DNA of 64,000 bases from a virus (Duplodnaviria; Heunggongvirae; Uroviricota; Caudoviricetes), in the IMG/VR virus record IMGVR_UViG_3300035208_002853, positions 24,033 through 88,032 of that record; one strand, 5' to 3'. This document shows positions 16,070-52,200 of the stretch, piece after piece. Positions within the stretch are counted from its first letter, which is position 1; every line of letters begins with the position of its first letter. The notes beneath the pieces are model-generated. The model ran no database searches, was not told where the DNA came from, and saw only the letters and a list, made by a program, of their open reading frames with translations. The translations under genes were made by a program, and so were the position numbers.

Positions 16070-17770
16070 TCATCTCATCACCTCCCTCGCTAATACTCTT
16101 TCTGATAACTTCTCCTTCTTTTCGAGGATTTTATTTATGCGGGCCTCGATTACACTGTTACTGTTTAATTCATAAAAAGTCATAGGGTGAAGTTGGCCGC
16201 GCCTATCGATTCTTCCTCGGAGCTGCTCCATACGGCTAAATGTCCATGAAGAATTTATAACAATCATTGATGAACAAAATTGAAGATTTAAACCTTCCTG
16301 GGCTTTTTCTGAAGCTAAGAGAATCCTAGTATCTCCTCTGAACTTCTCAAGTTCGTCTTCAGTGTCATAACTCCCGGCAACCATAGCGCAGTCCTCATTT
16401 GTAAGACACCTTTTTACGAGTTCCAGAGCTTTTACATAGGTTGAAAATACAATGATTTTTTCTCTGCCCGATTCTTCCAAAATATCTTTTACCTCTAGAA
16501 GTCTTGGTGTTAATTCTATGTCTTCTGGTTTAATTTTGCCTTCTAATAGTTCTTGAACTTTGCTTGGAATATATTCAATAGACTCATTGCTATTCCCCTC
16601 GATCTGACTCCACAAGTCTAGACCTCTCGGTGCGTCCAAAACCGCTATCGGGAGGAGCGATGGGCTTATGAGATTTTCGCGGCTATACGTGAAGTATTTA
16701 AGAACATTATTTGGGTCCTCTTTTGCCAGTTCCAAGAGTCTTTTTTCTATTCGTTTCTGCTCCTTGGAGAGTTCTACGGTTCTTGTAATTATTGAAGTTG
16801 GTGGCAAATTTAATACTTCGCGTTTTTCTTTCCGGATCATAAGGGGTTTAATAAGTTCTCGGAACTCGTCTACATTACGTTCTCCCCGGATTTGCCAGTA
16901 AGATCTCCCGTTAGAACCTTGTCTTAGTTCTCTGACAAGGAACATTTCTGCAAATTTTTCATAAGACGGGATAAAGCCCGGACTAACTATATTTAATATT
17001 GTATAAAATTCTCCTAAATTATTATCAATTGGTTGTCCCGTTAAACCTATACAAGAGAACGTCTTGCTTCTTAGATCTATGCAGGCTTTTGTTCTCTTGG
17101 ACTCCCTGTTTTTTATACGCATAACTTCGTCAAATATTAATAATCCATTCCTGTTTAAATACAATTTAGCTTTATCAAGATCTGTTTTTTGTCTCATTAA
17201 GTCATAAGAGCAGATAACATATTGGCACTCTTTTGCGAGTTTCCACTGCTTCTCTCTTTTCTCTCTTGATCCATCGATTACTATTCTACTTGGATCTAGA
17301 TTATTAAACTTTTTTAATTCTTCATACCACTGGCCTCTTAATGAAGCGGGGCAAACAACAAGATTTCTTTGTCCCAAGTAATCTGCATACCCTATTGCGG
17401 TCGGTGTCTTGCCGAGGCCTATTGATAGGGCTATTACGCAAGATTGGGCATTTTTAGTAAACTCCAAAGCCTCTTTTTGATAGTCAAGTAACATTTCATA
17501 TTTAAAATTGTCTTCAAAAATTCTAATGGGTCTAAACGCTGTTTTTTGATTGTATTCCTCTAATACAGCTTTTGAAGGTTGTATCCCAAAAGACTCCAAC
17601 ACTTTAATTACGTGAGGTTGAAACTCTCCTCCGCGAGCCCAGAAATGACCCAATGGATTGAATGTGAATCCTAATACAGATAATTTATTTCGTAGAGAGG
17701 TAGAGCTATCTGTAAGGACAGCTAAAACTCTCTCTTTGAAGCCTTGAGGCGTTCCAAATTTCATTTCCAC
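16070..17770 (-). CDS. SNF2-family DNA-dependent ATPase/helicase
   Basis: DYQKEAL, GLGKT (Walker A), LIFDEVMRIKN (DExx), GLTGQPIDNNLGEFYTILN (SNF2 motif III), C-terminal helicase lobe. Confidence 0.8.
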   Translation of the reverse strand: MEMKFGTPQGFKERVLAVLTDSSTSLRNKLSVLGFTFNPLGHFWARGGEFQPHVIKVLESFGIQPSKAVLEEYNQKTAFRPIRIFEDNFKYEMLLDYQKEALEFTKNAQSCVIALSIGLGKTPTAIGYADYLGQRNLVVCPASLRGQWYEELKKFNNLDPSRIVIDGSREKREKQWKLAKECQYVICSYDLMRQKTDLDKAKLYLNRNGLLIFDEVMRIKNRESKRTKACIDLRSKTFSCIGLTGQPIDNNLGEFYTILNIVSPGFIPSYEKFAEMFLVRELRQGSNGRSYWQIRGERNVDEFRELIKPLMIRKEKREVLNLPPTSIITRTVELSKEQKRIEKRLLELAKEDPNNVLKYFTYSRENLISPSLLPIAVLDAPRGLDLWSQIEGNSNESIEYIPSKVQELLEGKIKPEDIELTPRLLEVKDILEESGREKIIVFSTYVKALELVKRCLTNEDCAMVAGSYDTEDELEKFRGDTRILLASEKAQEGLNLQFCSSMIVINSSWTFSRMEQLRGRIDRRGQLHPMTFYELNSNSVIEARINKILEKKEKLSERVLAREVMR

Positions 17771-25544: not shown

Positions 25545-27755
25545 TTAAATTGAATATCTCTTTCGGTCCATCAACTCTTCTTTCTTGCCTGCATTCCATC
25601 CGCTCACAGCTTGCAGGTAGCCCGTAACTCGGCTGATAAAATCTACATTTTTAGAGCCGCAGTTTGGGCAAACATGCCTTAATCCCTTGTTTGTTTTTGA
25701 GCAGTCCAAGCAAATTGTCATATCTCTAGTAACATCAAAATAGCCAATTTGAGTATTCCGAGCAGTCTTGTTTACGAGATCATAGAGCGCTTCGGGATCG
25801 GGATCTTTCTCCCCAAGGAATATATGGAAAATATTCCCACCGTCGAGGATAGGGAAAAATGTTTGTTCATAATTCATCCGCTCAACAAGAGAAACGTCGG
25901 CATTTGGCGGTAGCATTGTGCCATTCGTATAATATATTGGTAAATCGTTCATCTTGTTTATACGAGACAACGCCCCATTTACATCTCCCTGGACAATATT
26001 TTGTGTAAAAGGTCTGTATTTTTCGTTAAGAAGATCGGCCACCGCAAATCGTTGTGCCACTGATTCGGCAGGCGTTCTTGCTACCGCAATTTTGATCCCG
26101 CTCTCTTTCTCTAACTCTCTAGCATAATTTTTCATCTCCAAAAGAGCGCGAATAGCTAATCTATATGCATCCTTGCTTTCATGTAAGGCAAACCCCGTAT
26201 GATGCTTTACCATTTCATTAATTCCCACGACGCCAATCGTATAAACAAGGTCTTTTAGCAAATATGCATCTGGAAACCGTTTTCCGCTTTCGTGATCTAG
26301 TGATTTTTGGGTAAGGAATGGAAGCCGATCCGCCTGTAAAATCCTTTTCATCCAAGATTGTTTGATCTTAAAAACCTTAATAGCATCGTCCATTATCGAT
26401 TTCAAGTTCTCGAATAATAGATTGTCATCTCCATTAGATTTATAGGAAGCTCTAGGGGCGTTTACGGTAACTACCTGCCACGAACCCATTGAAAAATGTT
26501 TTCCATCAACAAAGTTTAACTTGTCTTCAAATTCGTTATCCGTTTCCTCATTATCCGAGAATTGATACGCGCAACATTGATAGCAAGAAATTCCCTTCCC
26601 CGCTCCTCGGTATTCCGGCATCTGGTTATCGAAATATGGAGTTCCAAATTTCGCTGCCAACTCTATTGATAATCTATATAAATCATCATATTCCGAGTTG
26701 TTCATAAAAAATGGTTCCATATTAATTTCGGGTTTTGGGAAATTAAACGGCTTCCCAAGATAGTCCCCTTCCAACATTACTTCCATTAAAGCCCTAAAAG
26801 TGGTTTGAGCCTCAGTCTCGAAATCTCCATAGGTCTGATTGTTCCAAATTTTTCCCTTATAAACTGGAGAAATATCGCGCCACATTTCCGGAATACCAGG
26901 AGACAGTTGTAGAGAAGAAAATACTATCTGGCCACCGCGAGCGACCTGGACCTGGGATGTCTCGTAGATTAATTCTTGCATAAGCTGTTTTATTTCTTTA
27001 TACTCTAGCCCGCGCATGTATGGAGCAATAAATGGTATAAAATTATAAAATCCTTGTCCGCCCGCGCAATTTGTTTGTCCCGCGGCAAGTATTTTTACTG
27101 CATGGAGAATAGCCACGGAAGGTTTCATTGCAGGACCAGCTACCGCGGCACGAATACCTTTTCCGTCGGGAAGAAATCCCGTCTTAAAGAAATAACGCAA
27201 ATCCCAGTCAGCGCAAAAAGGTCTTGTGCCAAAATATTCAAGGTCGTGGATGTGTAGATCTCCGCCTAAATGTTTGTCCGCTAACTGAGGCGGCATAAGC
27301 AACAAATATTGTTCCTTTGAAACCTTGTCGGCCTTCTTCTTGTGGCTCGTTTCAGGATTTCCCTGAACGTTGGCGTTCTCGTTCCGCTCAAATGAATTTT
27401 GGTCTCCCACATCGATCATGAAGGCGTCGTATACCGGCAATCCTACCCGTGTTGATCTTTTTCTGTAGGAATCATATCTCATTATGTCTTCTTTGTTTTT
27501 AGATTTTTGGCTTTTTTCAAGTAAAATTTGATTCGCAATTTCTCGGACCAACGAAGAATTTATTATTGAGTGTTTCTTGAAATTAATTCTCCTTTCTACT
27601 TCTATCGCTATTCCTTCTGCTTCTTCTCTAGAAATTCCATCAATTTCAAAGAACTCTTTAAGCGCGGCGGTTTCCTTTATAAGTTGATTAGAAATAGCGG
27701 CGCGGTCCCAAGGTCGATGTAGGCCACTAGACGTTCGTACAAAAATATTATCCAT
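25545..27755 (-). CDS. nrdD: anaerobic ribonucleoside-triphosphate reductase (class III)
   Basis: N-terminal ATP-cone-like region, C-terminal CLDCS...CPNCG Zn ribbon followed by the glycyl-radical motif SRVTGYLQ. Confidence 0.9.
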   Translation of the reverse strand: MDNIFVRTSSGLHRPWDRAAISNQLIKETAALKEFFEIDGISREEAEGIAIEVERRINFKKHSIINSSLVREIANQILLEKSQKSKNKEDIMRYDSYRKRSTRVGLPVYDAFMIDVGDQNSFERNENANVQGNPETSHKKKADKVSKEQYLLLMPPQLADKHLGGDLHIHDLEYFGTRPFCADWDLRYFFKTGFLPDGKGIRAAVAGPAMKPSVAILHAVKILAAGQTNCAGGQGFYNFIPFIAPYMRGLEYKEIKQLMQELIYETSQVQVARGGQIVFSSLQLSPGIPEMWRDISPVYKGKIWNNQTYGDFETEAQTTFRALMEVMLEGDYLGKPFNFPKPEINMEPFFMNNSEYDDLYRLSIELAAKFGTPYFDNQMPEYRGAGKGISCYQCCAYQFSDNEETDNEFEDKLNFVDGKHFSMGSWQVVTVNAPRASYKSNGDDNLLFENLKSIMDDAIKVFKIKQSWMKRILQADRLPFLTQKSLDHESGKRFPDAYLLKDLVYTIGVVGINEMVKHHTGFALHESKDAYRLAIRALLEMKNYARELEKESGIKIAVARTPAESVAQRFAVADLLNEKYRPFTQNIVQGDVNGALSRINKMNDLPIYYTNGTMLPPNADVSLVERMNYEQTFFPILDGGNIFHIFLGEKDPDPEALYDLVNKTARNTQIGYFDVTRDMTICLDCSKTNKGLRHVCPNCGSKNVDFISRVTGYLQAVSGWNAGKKEELMDRKRYSI

Positions 27756-29918: not shown

Positions 29919-30884
29919 TCAACTCTCGTTAGGATTATAGACACAATCTATTGCATTCTTATCCGACCTAAATCTCAAGAAGCGCGGATGTCTAAAGCGC
30001 CCTGTTGGAAATCTGTCATTCGCCTTTATTTCGATAACCTTTCCCAGATACCTCTCTTTATTGTTACTGATCTCTTCCCTAAGAGCGTCGTCCATTCCCG
30101 AGCAAGTGCCAAATTCTATTAGTTTTTCGTCGTAAAACTGCCCAAATTTAATGGCCCCAATCCAACCATTATCGTATAATCTAGATGTTGATTCCTCCCC
30201 GGAAGATTTCTTTGTAATCTTGGTTGGATCTTCAAAACCCATTATGACGCAATCATGCGTGGCCTCTTTTTTAATTTTAATCCAATCCTTCGCATATGGA
30301 GATTTGGTATTTTTCAAAATTATACCCTCTCCTCCATTAGCCACGATTGTATTAAAATATTCTTCCTTGTCTTCGGTGATCGCCGGAACTATACTAAAGT
30401 GTTTACTCTCGGCGGCAGAGAAATTGTCCACCAAGACACTTCTCCTTTCTTCATATGAACGGTCTCGTAGATCTTGACCCTTGAAATATAAAATGTCGAA
30501 TACTCGGTAATCTACCCAGATATTCTCATTTTGAAGTCTTATAGCCTTTTCTGGGAGGGCTCCCATAATTTTTGACACGCGAGTACTTTGACTTTGATCT
30601 CCAACTACAATTTCGCCATCCAAAACCGTTCCTTCAAACTCTATATCCATCCCGTTACTCGTAAACAAATCTCTTAAATGCGGGACATTTTCAGTTTTTT
30701 CCACAAAAAGGTTATTTTTCACGGAAATATGTCTACTTGTGAACCTGTTTTTACCAATTCCGCAATGTAAAAGGAACCTTTCTCCGTCGAGCTTTTCCTC
30801 TCCTACAAATAAATTGGATTTTAACATCTTCTCATTAAATTTACCCCTAGCTTTTCCAGGAGTTAGTTGCTGCAATGGTTCCAT
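29919..30884 (-). CDS. ATP-dependent DNA ligase
   Basis: EEKLDGERF (motif I), EGIILK (IV), WIKIK (V), HPRFLRFRSDK (VI). Confidence 0.8.
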   Translation of the reverse strand: MEPLQQLTPGKARGKFNEKMLKSNLFVGEEKLDGERFLLHCGIGKNRFTSRHISVKNNLFVEKTENVPHLRDLFTSNGMDIEFEGTVLDGEIVVGDQSQSTRVSKIMGALPEKAIRLQNENIWVDYRVFDILYFKGQDLRDRSYEERRSVLVDNFSAAESKHFSIVPAITEDKEEYFNTIVANGGEGIILKNTKSPYAKDWIKIKKEATHDCVIMGFEDPTKITKKSSGEESTSRLYDNGWIGAIKFGQFYDEKLIEFGTCSGMDDALREEISNNKERYLGKVIEIKANDRFPTGRFRHPRFLRFRSDKNAIDCVYNPNES

Positions 30885-43715: not shown

Positions 43716-46124
43716 ATGGTCTCTCTTATTCAACAATATATAGACAAAGGTTGGGGCATTATCCCCATTCGGCCCAAAGGACATATAAATGAAAAAACAG
43801 GGGAGTCGGATGAAAAAGCACCCTTTGTCACCTGGGGAGGCTATAAAAGTAGTAATGGGCATAAACCTGATGAAGACCAAATTCTTCAGTGGTTATCTCA
43901 ATTTGATCGCGCAGACTGGGCCGTGCTAACAGGTTATGATAATCTTGTTTTAGTAGACATAGACGACCCCAATCTTTATGATCTCTATCTTTCTGATTTT
44001 AAAAAGTGTTTAATGAGAACCCCATCTGGCGGGATGTCTTTTCTTATTAGGAGTACGGTAGTTCCTAAATTTCATGCCCGTATAAATGGAGTCGCCGTAG
44101 ATATTAAAGGTATAGATGGGTATGCCATTCTTCCGTCTCGCGACTTGAGTCAAGAAGAAATAGATCTGGAAGAGAAAGAAGAAAAAGAAGGGACCAAAAG
44201 AGATTTTATACGTCATTGGATTAACTCTGAAGAGCCAGAAGAAATAGAAGACATCTATAGACACCTTGAATCGGTGTTACCTCTCATTAAGCCGGATGTT
44301 AAACCGGGAAAAGGAATTCCTACTGCTCTGGCATGGGCAAGAGAACATAATTTACAAATTGCTTATGATGGTGGAAGATATATCCAAGTTTTGTGCCCCC
44401 ACCATGAGGATACAAAACCATCAATGAGTATATATGCAGATGGATATTTTTGTCACAGCTGCCGGGCAACGGGTGGGTTGTTTTCTCTCATTAAATCTTT
44501 CAGTAATAAAACCGACGATGAGATCTATGCCGATTTTCCAGGGATTAAAAAGCAAAAGAAGACAATAACAGATAATGTAATAGAAATCGTGGGGAACAAC
44601 GTATCATTAGTAAAGGATCAAAACAATAACAGCTACTTCAAACTTCACGACTATTCTGAAATAGGAATAAATCTATTACCAATTACTTCTAAGATCACAA
44701 AATATTGGATTGCAACCACCGCAGAAAAAGTTATAGATAAGCTCCCATCTGAAAGCGTTTTATCCTATGTAATAAAATATTATGATGGAAAATGTATGGC
44801 TACCGGAGAAAAAGCAAAAATATTCCGCCGAGTGGGAGGGGATCTAGCTGGAAAGGTGGTCTGGTATGATCTCGGAAATAACAATTTTGTAAAAATAACA
44901 CCTGATGGGATTGGGGTATATCCTTACTCAGATGTTACTTTTATTAGAGAAACCAATCAAGGGACTCAGAATGTTCCAACAAAGAAAAATATTAAAAGTA
45001 TCTTTAAGTTATTTAATATCATAAACGTAAAAGACGAGGCACAAAAAGTTTTACTTCTAACGTGGATAGTCAACTCGTTACTTCCCTGGGCTCAGAGTCC
45101 CATTCTTCTGTTGTGTGGTACTCGAGGTTCGGGAAAATCTTTTATGGGACGTATAATTAAAAGAACTCTAGATCCCGTGGAAGGAAACGCATCTGAGCTA
45201 TTGGTAAACAAACCGCAGGATTTAAATTATTTAATAGGATTACTTTCGCATAACGCCGTTGCTGTTTTAGATAACATCAGCAGAATTGATAGAGCTACGG
45301 GTGACGTACTATGTAACGTGGTTACTGGTGGTGTAATTTCTACTAGGGAATTGTATACCACCAATGATCAAATATTAATTGATATCCGTTCAAAATTAAT
45401 TATTACAGCCATCAATTCTCAAATATTTGATACCGGAGCAGGAGATCTCGCGGAAAGGACCGTAAGCATAGAAATTTCCAGACCTGAATCAAATTATTTA
45501 TCCGAAGAATGGCTAAATGAGGAATTTGAAACCTATAGGAGCGAAATATTTGGTGCGATCCTTGAACTCATACGCGGATACCTACAGAAAGGAATTCCCA
45601 GAAAGGGCGAGGTATCCGAATTTAGACTGACTACGTTTGCTTCCGTAGGGCGCTATATTTCAGACGTACTAGGATTAAAACCTAGCTTTGATGTCGCTTA
45701 CAGACTGAGCCAGGCTGGAATGTGCCAGACCTCATTGGAAGCAGAACCCGTTACTGAATTCTTTGTTGATTTCGTAAGAAAATATGGAGGCGTAGACTTC
45801 AACAACAATTCAGGATGGGGTATTTCTTCGGATGTATTATTCGGTAAATATTTCAACCAATGGATGATAGAAAACAATAGCGGTGGCATGGACAAAAAGT
45901 TACCTGCAACATCAAGCTCTCTATTAAATAGATTAAAGAGAATAGAACCTGATCTAAAGAGAATCTACTCAATTGTTATTGAGCCCCAAGGAGTCCATAG
46001 AGGAAAGAAGTGGTACAGGTTGTATTGTAAGGACCTTGAAATGCTTAACGAGGGAGCAGAGGAAGAGATCTTGGAGAAACAAACATCTATCGAGAAAGAT
46101 AGTAACGAGGAAGCGGGATGGTAA
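43716..46124 (+). CDS. primase-polymerase (prim-pol) / CHC2 zinc-finger / SF3 (D5-like) helicase fusion replication protein
   Basis: N-terminal prim-pol-like region (VLVDIDDP...), CPHHEDTKPSMSIYADGYFCHSCRATGG (CHC2 Zn finger), Walker A LLCGTRGSGKS with downstream SF3-like region; 802 aa. Confidence 0.75.
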   Translation: MVSLIQQYIDKGWGIIPIRPKGHINEKTGESDEKAPFVTWGGYKSSNGHKPDEDQILQWLSQFDRADWAVLTGYDNLVLVDIDDPNLYDLYLSDFKKCLMRTPSGGMSFLIRSTVVPKFHARINGVAVDIKGIDGYAILPSRDLSQEEIDLEEKEEKEGTKRDFIRHWINSEEPEEIEDIYRHLESVLPLIKPDVKPGKGIPTALAWAREHNLQIAYDGGRYIQVLCPHHEDTKPSMSIYADGYFCHSCRATGGLFSLIKSFSNKTDDEIYADFPGIKKQKKTITDNVIEIVGNNVSLVKDQNNNSYFKLHDYSEIGINLLPITSKITKYWIATTAEKVIDKLPSESVLSYVIKYYDGKCMATGEKAKIFRRVGGDLAGKVVWYDLGNNNFVKITPDGIGVYPYSDVTFIRETNQGTQNVPTKKNIKSIFKLFNIINVKDEAQKVLLLTWIVNSLLPWAQSPILLLCGTRGSGKSFMGRIIKRTLDPVEGNASELLVNKPQDLNYLIGLLSHNAVAVLDNISRIDRATGDVLCNVVTGGVISTRELYTTNDQILIDIRSKLIITAINSQIFDTGAGDLAERTVSIEISRPESNYLSEEWLNEEFETYRSEIFGAILELIRGYLQKGIPRKGEVSEFRLTTFASVGRYISDVLGLKPSFDVAYRLSQAGMCQTSLEAEPVTEFFVDFVRKYGGVDFNNNSGWGISSDVLFGKYFNQWMIENNSGGMDKKLPATSSSLLNRLKRIEPDLKRIYSIVIEPQGVHRGKKWYRLYCKDLEMLNEGAEEEILEKQTSIEKDSNEEAGW

Positions 46125-46366
46125 ATAAATGTATTTGGTGCGGCTCGGAGGATACGTACTTCGAGCAAGATACGCATAATAAAACAACTAAGGATGGAAC
46201 GGATTACGGAGTCTTTATTTGTAACAACTGCCATCAAATTCAATTTTGGTTTTTTAAGATTAAAGGAGGAGTTAATGTTGCAAACGGAAAACTTACCATA
46301 AAACATAAGGAACCAAAAATTGTTTTTATAAATCAATGGGATGGTCCAGTAACTCAATTTCTTTAG
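46118..46366 (+). CDS. Zn-ribbon small protein
   Basis: CIWCG...CNNCH; ATGA-type coupling to replication gene. Confidence 0.4.
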   Translation: MVNKCIWCGSEDTYFEQDTHNKTTKDGTDYGVFICNNCHQIQFWFFKIKGGVNVANGKLTIKHKEPKIVFINQWDGPVTQFL

Positions 46367-46894
46367 AATCACATAGAGCAATCCTCAAAATTAACTGGAA
46401 GACCCATAGATACTTACTATACACATATTATTATTAAAAACGCGAAAGAAATGTTTGCGAGAAGATTAGATTTTACTGAAGTAATCGACGCTTTTAATAA
46501 AAAGGTTTTGAAGGAAATCGCGGAGGAGAGATGATCACTAAAGAAGAGACAAAAATTGTTGCCTCCTTGGCACCAATTACAGAAGAATTTTTAAGGGAAA
46601 ATGTTACAGATATGAGTGAGGCGTGTTTCCTGGCGGCAATGGCGACTATGGGATTCCACAAAAGCGTGATGATAGAATTACTCGAAAAATATAATAGGTT
46701 ATTCCTTTATGCAATACAAAGGCGTTATCCTTAAGTAGGATTAAGTAGTGGTTAGAGGTATGATATTCGAACCTGGGGATTCCGACGAGTTAGACTTTGC
46801 GATGGACGTTGTGGGCGAAAGCGTAGGCGATCCTGAGCCAACAATGGCAGTTCTAAGGCGCTTGAGAGATGCAGCAAAAATGGAGGGATATTAG

Positions 46895-47140
46895 ATGGAA
46901 GAAGATGTTATTATAGGGGAAGACGATTGGGCTCCAATCCCACCAATCCGAAGTTACAAAATGGTAATGGTCCCGCCAGAGAAATATGCGACGCTAAAAT
47001 CTATTACCGAAGAAATTGTTAATAGAAGTTGGTTCTCGGCGGACTGGCCGATGGAATGTAAAATATGCGGAGAGGTTTATCCGAACCATTATGAGTTTTG
47101 TTTAGTGTTAAAGGCTAAGAAGGTATTGGAGGAGGTATGA
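46895..47140 (+). CDS. hypothetical protein
   Basis: ORF; its stop overlaps the ATG of the disrupted small gene (GTATGA). Confidence 0.4.
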   Translation: MEEDVIIGEDDWAPIPPIRSYKMVMVPPEKYATLKSITEEIVNRSWFSADWPMECKICGEVYPNHYEFCLVLKAKKVLEEV

Positions 47141-47235
47141 AGAAATGTTTGATCTATTATCATGGGTGTTGGGGGTTGCGCTTGGTGTGTGCGGCACGTA
47201 TTTTGTCATCGCAGGTCGGAGATGAATTGAAATAA
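47137..47235 (+). pseudogene. 5' fragment of small Zn-ribbon gene disrupted by the TnpB element
   Basis: GGAGGAGG SD + ATG AAG AAA TGT TTG ATC TAT then reads into the element; joins in frame with 48666..48800 to give MKKCLIYCESCGY...CPEDTDCGSG. Confidence 0.4.
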
Positions 47236-47297
47236 TCTCGCGCCTATAATTAAGCGAAACCTTTAAATACTATTACAGCATAAATCAAACTACTTCT

Positions 47298-48455
47298 ATG
47301 AAGAAATCCTATAAATTTCGGGTGTTTCCAACTAAGGCTCAACAACATCTCTTAGAAGAAACTCTCGATCTTTGTAGGTGGACCTACAATCAAACCTTGG
47401 CCTACAGAAAGAACATGTGGGAATCAGAGAAAAAGAACGTTTCTAAGTACGATTCCCATCTTTTGCTTCCAACATGGAAGGCTGAAAGGCCAGAGTTGAA
47501 AGGCGTATTTTCTCAGGTTCTACAAAACGCCCAAGAAAGGATTGACCTCGCTTTTAAGGCTTTCTTTAGACGAGTCAAAAACCATGAAAATCCTGGATAT
47601 CCTAGATTTAAAGGAAAGGGGAACTATGACTCGTTTACGTACCCTCAAAGCGGATTCTCTGTAAAGGATAACAAAACTCTTTACCTCTCCAAAATCGGAG
47701 ATGTCAAGATAAAGATTCATAGAGAAATTGAGGGCCAAATAAAAAGGTTGACCGTCCTTAGAACCATACGGAACAAATGGTATGTTACGTTCTCCGTAGA
47801 ACAAGAAACTATATTCATACCTTCTGATAACGGTCCAGTAATCGGAATTGATCTTGGGTTAGAAAGCTTTTTAACATTCTCAGATGGCAGCAAGGTTGAT
47901 AATCCAAGGTTCTTCCGATCTGAAGAACATTTATTGGCTAAGAAACAGAGTCGAAGAGACAAACTCCCTAAAGGCTCCGTAGAAAGGAAGAAAACAACAA
48001 GGGTTATCCAGAGAATTCATGAGAGAATAACCAATAAACGTTCTAATTTTGCCCATCAACTCAGTCATAAATTAGTAACAAAATATTCTGTAGTTTGCTT
48101 AGAAGATCTTAATATAAAATCAATGCTCAGAGATGGAACACGCGGACTGTCTAAGTCTATCTCAGACGCTTCTTGGAATCTTCTACTCCGATTAATTTCC
48201 TACAAGGCTGAAAGTGCCGGTTCGAAAGCGATCTTTGTAGATCCTCGAAATACGTCTCAGATGTGTTCTTTCTGCGGAGCGATGGTTCCGAAGCAGTTAA
48301 AGGACCGAATCCATAAATGCCCATTCTGCGGCTTAGAAATGGACCGAGACAAAAACGCTGCTATAAATATACTCAGATTGGGATTACAATCTGTCGGTAA
48401 AACCGATCTTAGATCGGAAGTCCGTAGAAGCCCCATCTTTCAGGATGGGGAATGA
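47298..48455 (+). CDS. tnpB: TnpB (IS605 OrfB-type RNA-guided RuvC-like nuclease)
   Basis: IGIDLGLESF (RuvC-I), CLEDLNIK (RuvC-II), CSFCG...HKCPFCG Zn finger, DRDKNAAINIL (RuvC-III). Confidence 0.85.
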   Translation: MKKSYKFRVFPTKAQQHLLEETLDLCRWTYNQTLAYRKNMWESEKKNVSKYDSHLLLPTWKAERPELKGVFSQVLQNAQERIDLAFKAFFRRVKNHENPGYPRFKGKGNYDSFTYPQSGFSVKDNKTLYLSKIGDVKIKIHREIEGQIKRLTVLRTIRNKWYVTFSVEQETIFIPSDNGPVIGIDLGLESFLTFSDGSKVDNPRFFRSEEHLLAKKQSRRDKLPKGSVERKKTTRVIQRIHERITNKRSNFAHQLSHKLVTKYSVVCLEDLNIKSMLRDGTRGLSKSISDASWNLLLRLISYKAESAGSKAIFVDPRNTSQMCSFCGAMVPKQLKDRIHKCPFCGLEMDRDKNAAINILRLGLQSVGKTDLRSEVRRSPIFQDGE

Positions 48456-48665
48456 TCACGAACCCAGATTTATTACCAGATGATATTATTTCCGACCTAT
48501 GTAACAATCTCGGAATCGACCCAGGAGATGACAAAAGTTCTAAAATCATAGAAGAAATGACTCCAGATCAAGTACTTAAATGCGTCTGTAATTGGAACGG
48601 ATTGATAGGATATTCTCAGAAAATAAAATATTGGGTTGATAGCATTTATCAGAGGGGAGTTTAAT
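48456..48665 (+). ncRNA. candidate omega-RNA / right-end region of the TnpB element
   Basis: By analogy with IS200/605 elements, where the guide RNA is encoded at the 3' end of tnpB plus RE; the track ORF 48452..48664 here ends exactly at the element boundary and may be fortuitous. Confidence 0.25.
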
Positions 48666-48800
48666 TTGATCTATTGTGAATCCTGCGGGTACTCTGAAGA
48701 TAGACCGCTCTATAATTTAAAAATATGGTGTTCCTTATGGAAGATTTCTGTATGTCCGGAAGATACAGACTGCGGAAGCGGGATACCAAAAGGGGAATAA
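48666..48800 (+). pseudogene. 3' fragment of the disrupted small Zn-ribbon gene
   Basis: TTG ATC TAT TGT GAA TCC TGC GGG ... CPEDTDCGSGIPKGE*; in frame with the 5' fragment once the element is removed. Confidence 0.35.
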
Positions 48801-48825
48801 TCTTTTTTTAAAAGGGGAGATTTGA

Positions 48826-49278
48826 TTGGTAAATAAAATAAAGATCACTATTACATCAATAGACAGAGAGCCTTCTTTTTTGGTAGATGAGTATACCTCA
48901 TCTAGAGAGATAGAGGAATATATTAAAAATAGATATGGGGCTCAGGCACCTCCCAAGAAAGGTATGCAGGCTAAGAAACATGAGTGGATTTCTCAAAAGT
49001 CCGAGAGGACTAGAGATAACAGCCTATATCTAGAAGAAGAGATTTCACAATTAAGAGAGCAGATCGCGCTACAGGAAAGGGAAGAAAAGAGATTAAAACA
49101 AGCAATTAAAAACCTGAATAAATGTCTAGTGCAGGCCCACACAAAGATATACTACATAGATAGGACACAAAACATCAATTGGTTAGATAACGTTCCATCT
49201 AAAGAAGACATAAAATCAGCAAAGTTGAAAACAGAAGAGATTCTAATTAGACTGAAATTGGAAGACATAGAAAAATAA
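48826..49278 (+). CDS. coiled-coil hypothetical protein
   Basis: TTG start per ORF track; Glu/Lys/Arg-rich heptads. Confidence 0.4.
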   Translation: MVNKIKITITSIDREPSFLVDEYTSSREIEEYIKNRYGAQAPPKKGMQAKKHEWISQKSERTRDNSLYLEEEISQLREQIALQEREEKRLKQAIKNLNKCLVQAHTKIYYIDRTQNINWLDNVPSKEDIKSAKLKTEEILIRLKLEDIEK

Positions 49279-52200
49279 TATTTTTTTTAAATCCTGCGAG
49301 GTCGGAAAATCTCCTGCGGATGTTTTTGGGTCCGTATTAGGGGCTGTTTAAATTTATAAATTTTAATTAAAATAGTATGTTTTTTTTAAATGGTTTATTT
49401 ATAACGATTGTTCATAATTTCCCAGACTTTTATTCTTCCTCTTCTTTATTTCTAAAGAATATTCCTTTTTTCTCCTTAGAATATCGTCCTTTATAGATGC
49501 TTCTAATCCGTTTAAGAGGTGAAGCAAGTACTGACTAGGAAGAGTCTTCGCGACTTCGGGTAGGTCGATAAATAGTCTACTATATTGAGATATTAGACGA
49601 ACCCTGTCATTTGGATGCCTATTGGGGACACTAAATTCTTCTTCAAAGTAAAGTAGCTCACCTACTGGATCTAATAAAAAAGAATCTTTAATTTGCATTA
49701 TTCCTTCTCCCCTTTAATCTTCTTTTCAATCATTTCTATCTCTGCCGAATTTGCAGCGCCAAGAGTGTCATGTAGAAATTCATTAATACTCAGGGCCGCA
49801 TTATAATCTATAAGTGCATTTTTCTTATAAGTCGGATCTTTAAGGACTTCTGAGATCTCAATACCATAATCCGCTCTATTGACACATGCCACGGAATATT
49901 CCTTTAAAATGTTTATAGCTGTCCTCTTGTGAGATTGAACATTGCTATCATACTCCTCTTTGGCACTAAATATTGCGTCTTTTACCATTTCAAGAGCCAT
50001 AGGTTTAGTCCTCCTTTATTGTAACATATTTTATATCTTTAACGCCCCAGCTAAGATGCTCGTATACTTCAATTATATCCCGATAAATCCATATTCGAGT
50101 CCCATCTTGTCTCATTCTTTCCGTTGTTATTCTGGTTGCACCATCTCTTAAGAGGTGATAATAATCTCTAGAATCTACAAGGCTCCATTTTTCATCACTC
50201 ATTTTAATCACTTCCAATTGAATATAGCCTTGCATCATCAGGTTTCTTTAGTCTGTTCCCGTCTTTATCATAAAATCCCTCCAGATCTAATCCGACAACC
50301 GCATCAAGAAATTCTTGGTCCTTAGAGGCTACCGTATCCAATCCTATTAAACCTAGAGATACAATTCTTTTAACCCCTAGTCCCTCATTTAACATATGTT
50401 TAATCTCAATTATTTCAAGACCACGTATAACACCAATCATTTCCTCATAAATATGCAAATTCTTAAGACTCATGTTTTATTTCTCCTTTTATTTTTGCCA
50501 TTATCAAACTGACATCATCATCTCTTCTGAGATCGTGAAGCCTCCATTTTAAATAAGCGGCCTCTAAAGCATGTTTTCTAGTGAAATAAATATCCCCTCT
50601 TCTCAAATATCCAGACCATCCAGTTTTTGGTTCATCTACGAATACCCATGTTTCACTATCAGCAGGAGTACATTCCTGAGAGATTACATAAGGTTCCGGC
50701 TCTTGGACTTCCCAATATCTTATTGGGACCCTAAAAATGGGAGAACCTATGGGGTAATTGGTCATTTTTGGGACTCCAATAATCCGTTATATGCCTTTTC
50801 TAGAGCCACCAACGGACTAATACTATCATATCCTAAACTACAATCATAAATTGTCGGGCCATAATTAATTTGGGATCTCCAGATTGGAGAACCATTAGCA
50901 TCCTCAATGATAGAAATAGAAGGAAAAAATCCTTCCTCTTTTATCTTGTTTAATAATTGTTCCATTTTTAATCACTCTCCGCCATCGTCTTATCTTCTTT
51001 GGGAGCTAAAGTAATTTCTTTCAATATTCTAATCACTTCCCTAGATTTTTCGTGATAATGCTCATCAAGGCAGGTAAATTCGCCTCCATCATCATAAATT
51101 CTAGTTACTATTTCAAGTAGCAAATCTAGTGTGAAGTCCCGATCGCTCATCTCAGCATCCATATCGAGAATGAATTCAATCATCTCTTTATCTGAGAATT
51201 TATGAACTAGGGAATAAATTAGATCATCCCTGTCAATTTTTGCTTCTACGGGAACCATCATCTCAACACCGCCATCAACATTCCTAATGGGTCTAATTCT
51301 TGGACGTTTTCTTCCTTAAACTCTTCGTCCTTAAACGGACAAGAGGAGCAAACAAAACCCTCATTAAATTGGTAGGGCCATATTCCTGCGTGAGATGGCA
51401 ATCTCCGAAGGGAAATTGAAAACTCCATATATTTATCTGGATTCGCTTTAATTTCATCCACATCAAACTTTCTTACACATGAGATGTGACAATCTCCCGG
51501 AACTGGTTTTGAATATTTACACATGATTAACCTCCACTTCAATGTTAAACCTATCTTTGTTGTGATACACGAGATCTCCAACCGCTTCTAGGATGTTTAT
51601 TCCAGATCCGTAAACGAACGGATTCTCTTTAAGATGGGCTCGGAAAGCGTTACGGTTAAAATCTGGATCTAACTTCTCTATTGTAATCGCTATTGTCACA
51701 TTCAAAACTCCTTGTTAAGGATCATTTCTATTAAGTTTATTTCTACATCTCTCATTAATTGATATCCTGCGGCCATTTCATCGCATCGGTCATCCTCGTT
51801 TCTCGCCCTTTCTTTTTCCTCTTTAAGTCCTCGAAGTTTTTCAAATTTTGCTTCATATTTTTGAAGACTAGCTATGGCTTCATTGAGTATATATTTATTG
51901 CATTCAGGAATTATTACCGACATATCTAAGGTTGATTGTGCTTTAAGTGATCCGTACATTTTTTATCTCTCCTCTTTCAATTTTCCTGCGGGAATAAATT
52001 AGGTCCGTATAAGGACCATTTTCCTAAATTCTAAAATTTAAAGATAATTCGCAAACTCCCATTTGTTAATGGTTTCTCCTTTTCCGTTTTTTAGTACGGC
52101 TATATTAAAGTTGTTAACTCCTGGAATATTTTGGGCATCCAACAGAGTTGAAAACACTTGTTCCGCCTCTTCTACGCTATTAACTTTAATTTCTCCAGGG

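Follow-up and report, generated by a model that had tools for sequence, protein, structure and literature searches.

Genes and features of the tnpB locus

The DNA analysed here, hereafter the window, is a stretch of 64,000 nt from the IMG/VR record IMGVR_UViG_3300035208_002853 (positions 24,033-88,032 of that record). It is viral, and its proteins include a helicase, NrdD, a DNA ligase, a DHH phosphoesterase and PHROG-only proteins. The subject of this report is a tnpB gene that stands in a row of small phage genes, with an 81-amino-acid (aa) gene on its left and a 70-aa gene and a small Zn-ribbon gene on its right (Table 1). Our analyses favor an arrangement in which a TnpB-only element ends at 48459 and is inserted in the start codon of the 70-aa gene, with an 11-bp direct repeat nearby that is incidental to it; we give this arrangement, taken as a whole, a probability of about 0.8. 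An earlier account of the same DNA (the sequence-only reading) had instead proposed a 1.5-kb element that was bounded by the repeat and had split a 48-codon Zn-ribbon gene.

The 385-aa open reading frame (ORF) of tnpB is uninterrupted, as that reading had it, and carries three Pfam domains (OrfB_IS605, Cas12f1-like_TNB and HTH_OrfB_IS605). Its residues 3-371 align to ISDra2 TnpB (8bf8/8exa) with E = 2.9e-52. Relative to ISDra2, the RuvC Asp/Glu/Asp residues and the CxxC...CxxC zinc finger have been kept (IGIDLG, CLEDLN, MDRDKNAA and both CxxC motifs), and the nuclease would appear to be competent, judging from its residues.

The element measures at most 1.3 kb, of which tnpB takes up 1158 bp. 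No second ORF was found between the element ends, hence no Y1 (HUH) TnpA gene lies inside, and no second copy of the element was found within the window. Other copies were gathered through the protein database and contig collections, from loci L004 (the same contig as L007), L005, L006, L008, L018, L019, L020 and L027. These eight and the window copy make up the nine-copy comparison used throughout, in which L027 was reversed. At the DNA level the other copies are 77-87% identical to the window copy, and their flanks are unrelated. By this comparison the element is a non-autonomous, TnpB-only member of the IS200/IS605 family (IS1341-like) of ~1.25-1.3 kb; the family assignment rests on the relatives, because the left-end hairpin of the window copy is incomplete. 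That a TnpB element of the IS200/IS605 type has been inserted into a phage gene array, as had been proposed, is supported.

Table 1. Features of the tnpB locus and element copies in related phages (positions are those of the window unless a locus is named)
Feature	Position	Strand	Basis or remark
81-aa phage gene (left flank)	46895-47140	+	homologues in L001, L022 (79 aa) and L027 (79 aa)
32-aa ORF, MKKCLIYYHGCWG...	47137-47235	+	behind GGAGGAGG; ATGA overlap with the 81-aa gene
Left copy of the 11-mer TTTGATCTATT	47148-47158	+	contains TTGAT (47149-47153)
GC-rich segment	47154-47211	+	occupies the place of the left-end tip and 5′ hairpin arms
Surviving left end: 3′ arm of the left-end hairpin (CAGGTCGGAGATGAATTGAAATAAT) and tnpB leader	47212-47297	+	homology to other copies
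tnpB, 385 aa, intact	47298-48455	+	three Pfam domains; alignment to ISDra2 TnpB
Omega-RNA scaffold (predicted)	48269-48459	+	overlaps the tnpB 3′ end; conserved fold in nine copies
70-aa phage gene, native ATG displaced	48452-48664	+	homologues in related phages
Guide portion of the omega-RNA (predicted), GAACCCAGATTTATTACCAG	48460-48479	+	directly 3′ of the right end
Right copy of the 11-mer TTTGATCTATT	48665-48675	+	one intergenic nt and the first 10 nt of the Zn-ribbon gene (TTG ATC TAT T)
Small Zn-ribbon gene, MIYCESCGY..., 44 aa, intact	48666-48800	+	protein alignment with L021, L027 and L001
Element copy, window (left limit probable)	47154-48459	+	on the start codon of the 70-aa gene
Element copy, L006	2280-3586		after a 158-aa gene
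Element copy, L027	5717-6476	reverse	~20 nt after the Zn-ribbon gene
Helicase	16070-17770	minus
NrdD	25545-27755	minus
DNA ligase	29919-30884	minus

Right end of the element and predicted omega-RNA

All nine copies, in their unrelated flanks, end in ...GGGGARTGATCAC, which places the right end of the window copy at 48459, four bases past the tnpB stop codon. What the copies have in common reads ...CGTAGAAGCCCC..GGGGARTRRTCAC, that is, CGTAGAAGCCCC, a hairpin and GGGGA(G/A)T(G/A)(A/G)TCAC, and they diverge from the very next base. The terminal bases are GATCAC, AATCAC or AGTCAC, after a hairpin of the form CCCCxxCx-TTCA-GGxxGGGG; in the window this hairpin is CCCCATCT-TTCA-GGATGGGG (48431-48450), followed by AATGATCAC. 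The right copy of the 11-bp repeat lies 206 bp beyond this end, so the repeat does not flank the element as had been claimed.

The last ~190 nt of the nine copies have a consensus fold with 58 pairs, of which 7 show compensatory changes; the conserved pairs take in the terminal hairpin and a CAGATTG/CAATCTG stem. In the window the region folds better than its shuffles (z = -2.66). Between CTGTCG and CGTAGAAG (48394-48422) lies a stem-loop whose shape is kept while its sequence varies among copies; it is CCGATC/GATCGG in the window and L018, has other sequences in L005, L006 and L027, and is missing from L004 and L019, which have no hairpin there. The same stretch codes for the variable C-terminal tail of TnpB. 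Such variability is the pattern that would be expected of an RNA expansion stem. An Rfam search of 46800-49200 gave chance-level matches only and no family.

From this comparison we infer that an omega-RNA is encoded by the last part of tnpB together with the right end. As TnpB is known to work, its guide, GAACCCAGATTTATTA..., would come from the adjoining flank. The predicted guide GAACCCAGATTTATTACCAG corresponds to codons 1-7 of the native 70-aa gene minus the AT of its ATG. The sequence-only reading had looked for the omega-RNA at 48400-48690; most of that stretch is the coding sequence of the 70-aa gene, and the conserved structured region lies at ~48269-48459.

Displaced start of the 70-aa gene

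All five homologues of the 70-aa protein open with MNP(D/E)(L/S)LPDDIISD, and the window protein opens with MIT-NPDLLPDDIISD (MIT-NPDLLPDD), in which MIT is encoded by the last eight bases of the element, ATGATCAC. The DNA of the window here is ...GGGGA ATG ATC AC|G AAC CCA GAT..., compared with ATG AAY CCA GA in the relatives. The element therefore separates the first two bases of the native start codon, AT, from its G. The present ATG, at 48452, stands inside the right end, in frame, and overlaps the tnpB stop codon (ATGA); translation of the 70-aa gene is now probably coupled to that of tnpB. Position 48452 is A in the window copy only and G in the eight other copies. The change from G to A converts GTG to ATG for the 70-aa gene, and in tnpB it leaves the amino acid as it was (GAG to GAA).

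Homologues of the gene occur in L021 and L022 with no TnpB nearby, and in L006 a 69-aa homologue lies ~0.8 kb upstream of the TnpB copy of that phage, separate from it. Judging from these homologues, the ORF at 48452-48664 is a conserved phage gene and not element cargo. The segment between the repeats had been described as carrying tnpB only; it holds this gene as well.

The 11-bp repeat and the Zn-ribbon gene

Several observations behind the sequence-only reading were reproduced. Both copies of the 11-mer TTTGATCTATT are present, and deletion of 47159-48675 does yield an in-frame ORF of 48 codons. Upstream of this fused ORF, GGAGGAGG occupies 47129-47136, and its ATG (47137) overlaps the TGA of the 81-aa gene. 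An exact repeat that chance would produce in only 2-4% of cases, together with an in-frame fusion behind a good ribosome-binding site, are what speak for an element that split the Zn-ribbon gene by homing or by a target-duplicating route; the prior for an in-frame fusion is 1 in 3. We regard this explanation as very improbable. The nine copies end at 48459, and 48460-48664 belongs to a conserved phage gene, which L021 and L022 have in the absence of TnpB. The Zn-ribbon gene itself has its own start. Its homologues in L001, L021 and L027 all open with M-I-Y-C, aligned with the TTG at 48666, which stands 6 nt after the ribosome-binding site GGGGAG. In L021 the gene starts ATG ATC TAT TGT GAG with an in-frame TAG directly before it (ATGATCTATTGTGAG), and in L027 and L001 it starts ATG ATA TAC TGT (ATGATATACTGTG); a stop codon (L021) or a ribosome-binding site lies directly upstream. 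The MKKCL prefix of the fused ORF has no counterpart in any relative.

The repeat also loses its tie to the insertion on other grounds. Its right copy is a piece of a longer coding sequence, (A/T)TGATCTATTGTGA, that L021 and the window have in common, which is what the sequence-only reading had itself named as evidence against such a tie. Direct repeats do not abut both element ends, and the 11-mer is not a target duplication. The frequency of such repeats was estimated with a geometry of a 200-nt left zone, a gap for tnpB and a 350-nt right zone. Shared matches of at least 11 nt occurred at 4.4% of positions when this geometry was slid along the window, and in 2.0% of first-order Markov resamples. 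The window holds 53 exact 11-mer pairs 1-2 kb apart, the 75 nt around the left copy have further exact matches of 11-13 nt elsewhere in the window, and two exact 12-mers recur within the same 2.1 kb. Based on these observations, the 11-bp repeat is likely incidental.

A different history would give the repeat a role. A cassette made of the TnpB element, the 70-aa gene and the start of the MIYC gene, arriving as a circle or from another phage, could have recombined through 11-bp microhomology into an ancestor that had the 81-aa and MIYC genes side by side in this order, leaving the microhomology duplicated on both sides. The strong mosaicism of these phages in exactly this module would suit such an event, as would the fact that the 11-mer is somewhat rarer than chance predicts. 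However, similarity on both sides stops at the 11 nt, the MIYC gene adjoins the 81-aa gene in none of the relatives, and an extra event would be required for the loss of the ATG of the 70-aa gene to the right end. We therefore consider the cassette improbable, if slightly less so than the split gene, and retain the reading in which the element landed on the start codon of the 70-aa gene.

Left end, junction and TAM

The canonical left end of the element is seen in L004, L018, L006 and L054. It consists of a two-tier hairpin, ATTTCAA...CCCCGCGCC-TTCA-GGCCGGGG...TTGAAAT, and of 17-21 nt upstream of it that open with CT and have TTTAT directly before them. The junction therefore reads TTTAT|CT in four of four copies with an intact left end. 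Further left ends were sought by pattern: a strict pattern matched only the contig of L004, and a looser one added L054. A pattern match in L053 was dismissed as chance, and TTTAT|CC in L005 and L020, considered as alternative short left ends, was rejected because it is homologous to internal sequence of L018 and L006. An element-free allele of the L006 site is available in L001 (15000-15030), where ...AATTTGT|CGTTCCAC... corresponds to ...AATTTAT|[element]|CGGTCCAC... in L006. The L006 insertion has made no duplication relative to this empty site, and the pentanucleotide is TTTAT in L006 and TTTGT in L001. Because of the junctions at intact left ends and the L001 empty site, we take TTTAT to be the transposon-associated motif (TAM) of the clade.

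The two-tier hairpin folds in L004, L018 and L006 and does not fold in the window. Of the subterminal hairpins that the sequence-only reading had suggested looking for, the right-end one is present in full and only the 3′ arm of the left-end one survives. Homology to other copies starts in the window at 47212 (versus L004, in the loop of the left-end hairpin), 47242 (L018) and 47250-47252 (L005, L006 and L008), and CAGGTCGGAGATGAATTGAAATAAT occurs once in the window. On the phage side, DNA homology with L001 and L027 ends at 47134. The GC content of 47151-47200 is 54%, against ~38% nearby, which agrees with the earlier remark that the left end is locally GC-rich. The 58-nt segment 47154-47211 has no relative in the window, the other copies or the loci and no significant fold. 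A weak terminator-like hairpin (GTTGCGC...GTGCGGC, then ACGTATTTTG) can be drawn inside it at 47175-47195; the number of terminator-like sites in that region is not above the shuffled expectation. TnpA-driven transposition of the window copy is probably dead, because the 5′ arms of the left-end hairpin have been lost.

As a consequence of the replacement of the 5′ arms and tip by the GC-rich segment, the left junction of the window copy cannot be read by homology. It would lie somewhere in 47138-47211, most likely, though by no means surely, at TTGAT|CT (47153/47154). This site matches TTTAT|CT of the clade at six of seven bases, for which a rough estimate gives a ~2% chance in the 75 nt concerned. 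At the residue aligned to K76 of ISDra2, the window protein has Ser, as do 85 of the 86 clade members scanned, and K76S and similar changes in ISDra2 are known to widen TnpB recognition from TTGAT to TYKAT. Since the TYKAT class takes in both TTTAT and TTGAT, the TAM class is likely TTTAT/TTGAT. Thus, of the role given to TTGAT in the sequence-only reading, its place at 47149-47153 as the best candidate for junction and TAM stands; a TAM of the ISDra2 type does not, given TTTAT in all four intact copies and Ser at the K76 equivalent. For the window copy both junction and TAM are read by analogy and should be taken as candidates.

The 32-aa ORF that begins at 47137 spans this region. Among 1.84 billion representative proteins it has no significant relative other than itself; an extra match, P0130, proved to be an unrelated repeat protein, and a tblastn search against all fetched loci returned nothing. 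The ORF is thus not a conserved gene; its ATG may mark where the 70-aa gene started before it was displaced.

Spread and maintenance of the element family

One element family occupies three sites in the same module of related phages, namely those of the window, L006 and L027. Between these phages the element is 84-87% identical, compared with 69-76% for the backbone, which points to spread after the phages diverged. The insertion in the window had been called recent; it is not demonstrably so, judging from the loss of half of the left-end hairpin, the 84-87% identity of the nearest copies and the absence of an identical copy elsewhere. Four near-identical assemblies from different samples all carry the insertion in the same arrangement. 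In most copies (L005/L008, L019, L020 and the window) the left end is lost, replaced or strongly diverged; the right end and omega-RNA region is kept in nine of nine. This suggests that what selection keeps is the module of nuclease and guide, and not mobility by means of TnpA. In a possible mechanism, the complex of TnpB and omega-RNA would cut element-free alleles that have a TAM of the TTTAT/TTGAT class beside guide-matching sequence. During co-infection, such cutting could favor retention of the element or its copying by recombination.

It is also conceivable that the anatomy is as described above and that TnpB and its omega-RNA are inactive, the copy being merely inherited with the phage. 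The degenerate left end, the lack of a second copy in the window and the failure to see presence/absence polymorphism in the four near-identical assemblies would all fit such a relic. We consider it unlikely, though a good deal less so than the split gene or the cassette. The 385-aa ORF is uninterrupted with all catalytic residues and zinc ligands kept, and the right end and omega-RNA region is the best-conserved non-coding feature across copies while left ends decay. Further, the family reached three sites, with copies more alike than their backbones.

A more specific history can be proposed for the favored anatomy, but only tentatively, and we hold it to be less probable than not. The start-codon insertion would have been repaired by the ATG that the change from G to A made in the right end, so that translation of a useful or essential gene came to depend on tnpB, locking the element in. 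Separately, homing of the family among co-infecting relatives would account for the three sites, for copies more alike than backbones and for decaying left ends beside a kept nuclease and guide.

Several points weigh against our interpretation. The favored arrangement does not account for the GC-rich segment, and three different ...AT| junctions, at 47138 (GGTAT|), 47153 (TTGAT|) and 47160 (ATTAT|), would each rebuild the native ATG. With a probability of 2-4% in this geometry, chance is a likely rather than a proven source of the 11-mer. The A at 48452 is a single substitution that could be neutral, and selection on it is something that we infer. Both the use of the ATG at 48452 and the expression of the omega-RNA and TnpB are predictions from the sequence.

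In addition, an element-free allele of the exact window site was found in no collection searched. Searches of viral contigs with the 150-aa, 70-aa and 81-aa proteins returned nothing, and an alignment of the 70-aa family, run against metagenome contigs, gave only a fragment of 99.8% identity in which the element is present. With the 81-aa protein as query, the protein database led to L027, where different genes follow, and to three contigs that are identical or nearly so and arranged as in the window. The comparison that the sequence-only reading had called for, with related genomes carrying the rejoined small gene at an empty site, thus yielded no such allele.

Genomic setting and possible host

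The element sits within the early/replication gene array of a large uncultured virus. The region 43716-49278 forms a short plus-strand island (primase-helicase, small genes and tnpB), and the other large ORFs of the window are all on the minus strand. No tRNA genes were found in the window. The module downstream of the primase gene is mosaic, with a gene order that differs among L001, L006, L021, L022 and L027. In L022 a tandem duplication of ~66 nt covers the 3′ end of the homologue of a 68-aa gene (1975-2110), repeating ...GGTCCAAAACAATTAAACATTGGGTTGAAGAGATCTATAAAAATGGCCAATAGATTGATTTCAT.

Relatives of the window are present in IMG/VR, and a megablast search of 45000-51000 against deposited phages gave no match. 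Clues to the host come from several comparisons. The best match in a representative genome, at no more than 54% identity, is in a metagenome-assembled genome of Anaerolineaceae; named TnpB relatives (~62% identical) are from Methanothrix; and the best deposited-phage TnpB match (54.5% identity) is in Caudoviricetes sp. vir525, whose host is given as Methanosarcinales. An NCBI bin that contains the 81-aa protein of the phage points elsewhere, as it is labelled 'Proteobacteria bacterium'. Based upon the TnpB matches there are hints of an archaeal connection of the phage, to Methanosarcinales or Methanothrix.

Implications and comparison with known systems

For annotation, the element should be taken to end at 48459, the two adjoining small phage genes to be intact, the guide to be readable as GAACCCAGATTTATTA... 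and the TAM class to be likely TTTAT/TTGAT. The biological gain is modest, since TnpB genes are known to be common in phages and this one adds to their number. What the locus adds is a clear case of a right end supplying the start codon of the gene on which it landed. It also adds an element family at three sites whose TnpA-dependent left end is decaying, a pattern consistent with an element kept by its RNA-guided nuclease and not by transposition.

Among natural TnpBs of solved structure, the closest is that of ISDra2 from Deinococcus radiodurans (PDB 8bf8/8exa/8h1j), with which the window protein shares the RuvC triad and the zinc finger, and whose omega-RNA likewise overlaps the 3′ end of tnpB. 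However, ISDra2 TnpB reads TTGAT through K76 among other residues, whereas this clade has Ser there and its intact copies stand beside TTTAT. ISDra2 also carries tnpA, and the window element does not.

In motif, the family resembles ISGst2 of Geobacillus stearothermophilus. The TnpB2 of this IS200/IS605-family element has a TTTAT TAM that was established experimentally (Meers et al. 2023; 10.1101/2023.03.14.532601), the same motif as beside the left end of our family. Its omega-RNA comes from the right end and its guide from the flank, and its proposed role is to cut the element-free allele for retention. In contrast, ISGst2 is chromosomal, and the window element is viral, has no TnpA partner in view and has a degenerate left end, with TTGAT as its own motif if 47153 is the junction. 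The likeness drawn here is one of motif and layout.

The same holds for the solo-tnpB elements of Sulfolobus islandicus, in which 5′-TTTAT-3′ is conserved at the left end (PMC10640517). They too are tnpB-only, with right ends that are conserved save for the extreme 3′ guide (PMC10640517), but their place is in archaeal chromosomes. TnpB is frequent in phages (PMC12607003), and we found TnpB relatives in 443 of 50,697 deposited phage records, none closer than 55% identity. Compared with these deposited-phage TnpBs, the insertion on a start codon, with a right end that gives the replacement ATG, is specific to the window locus.

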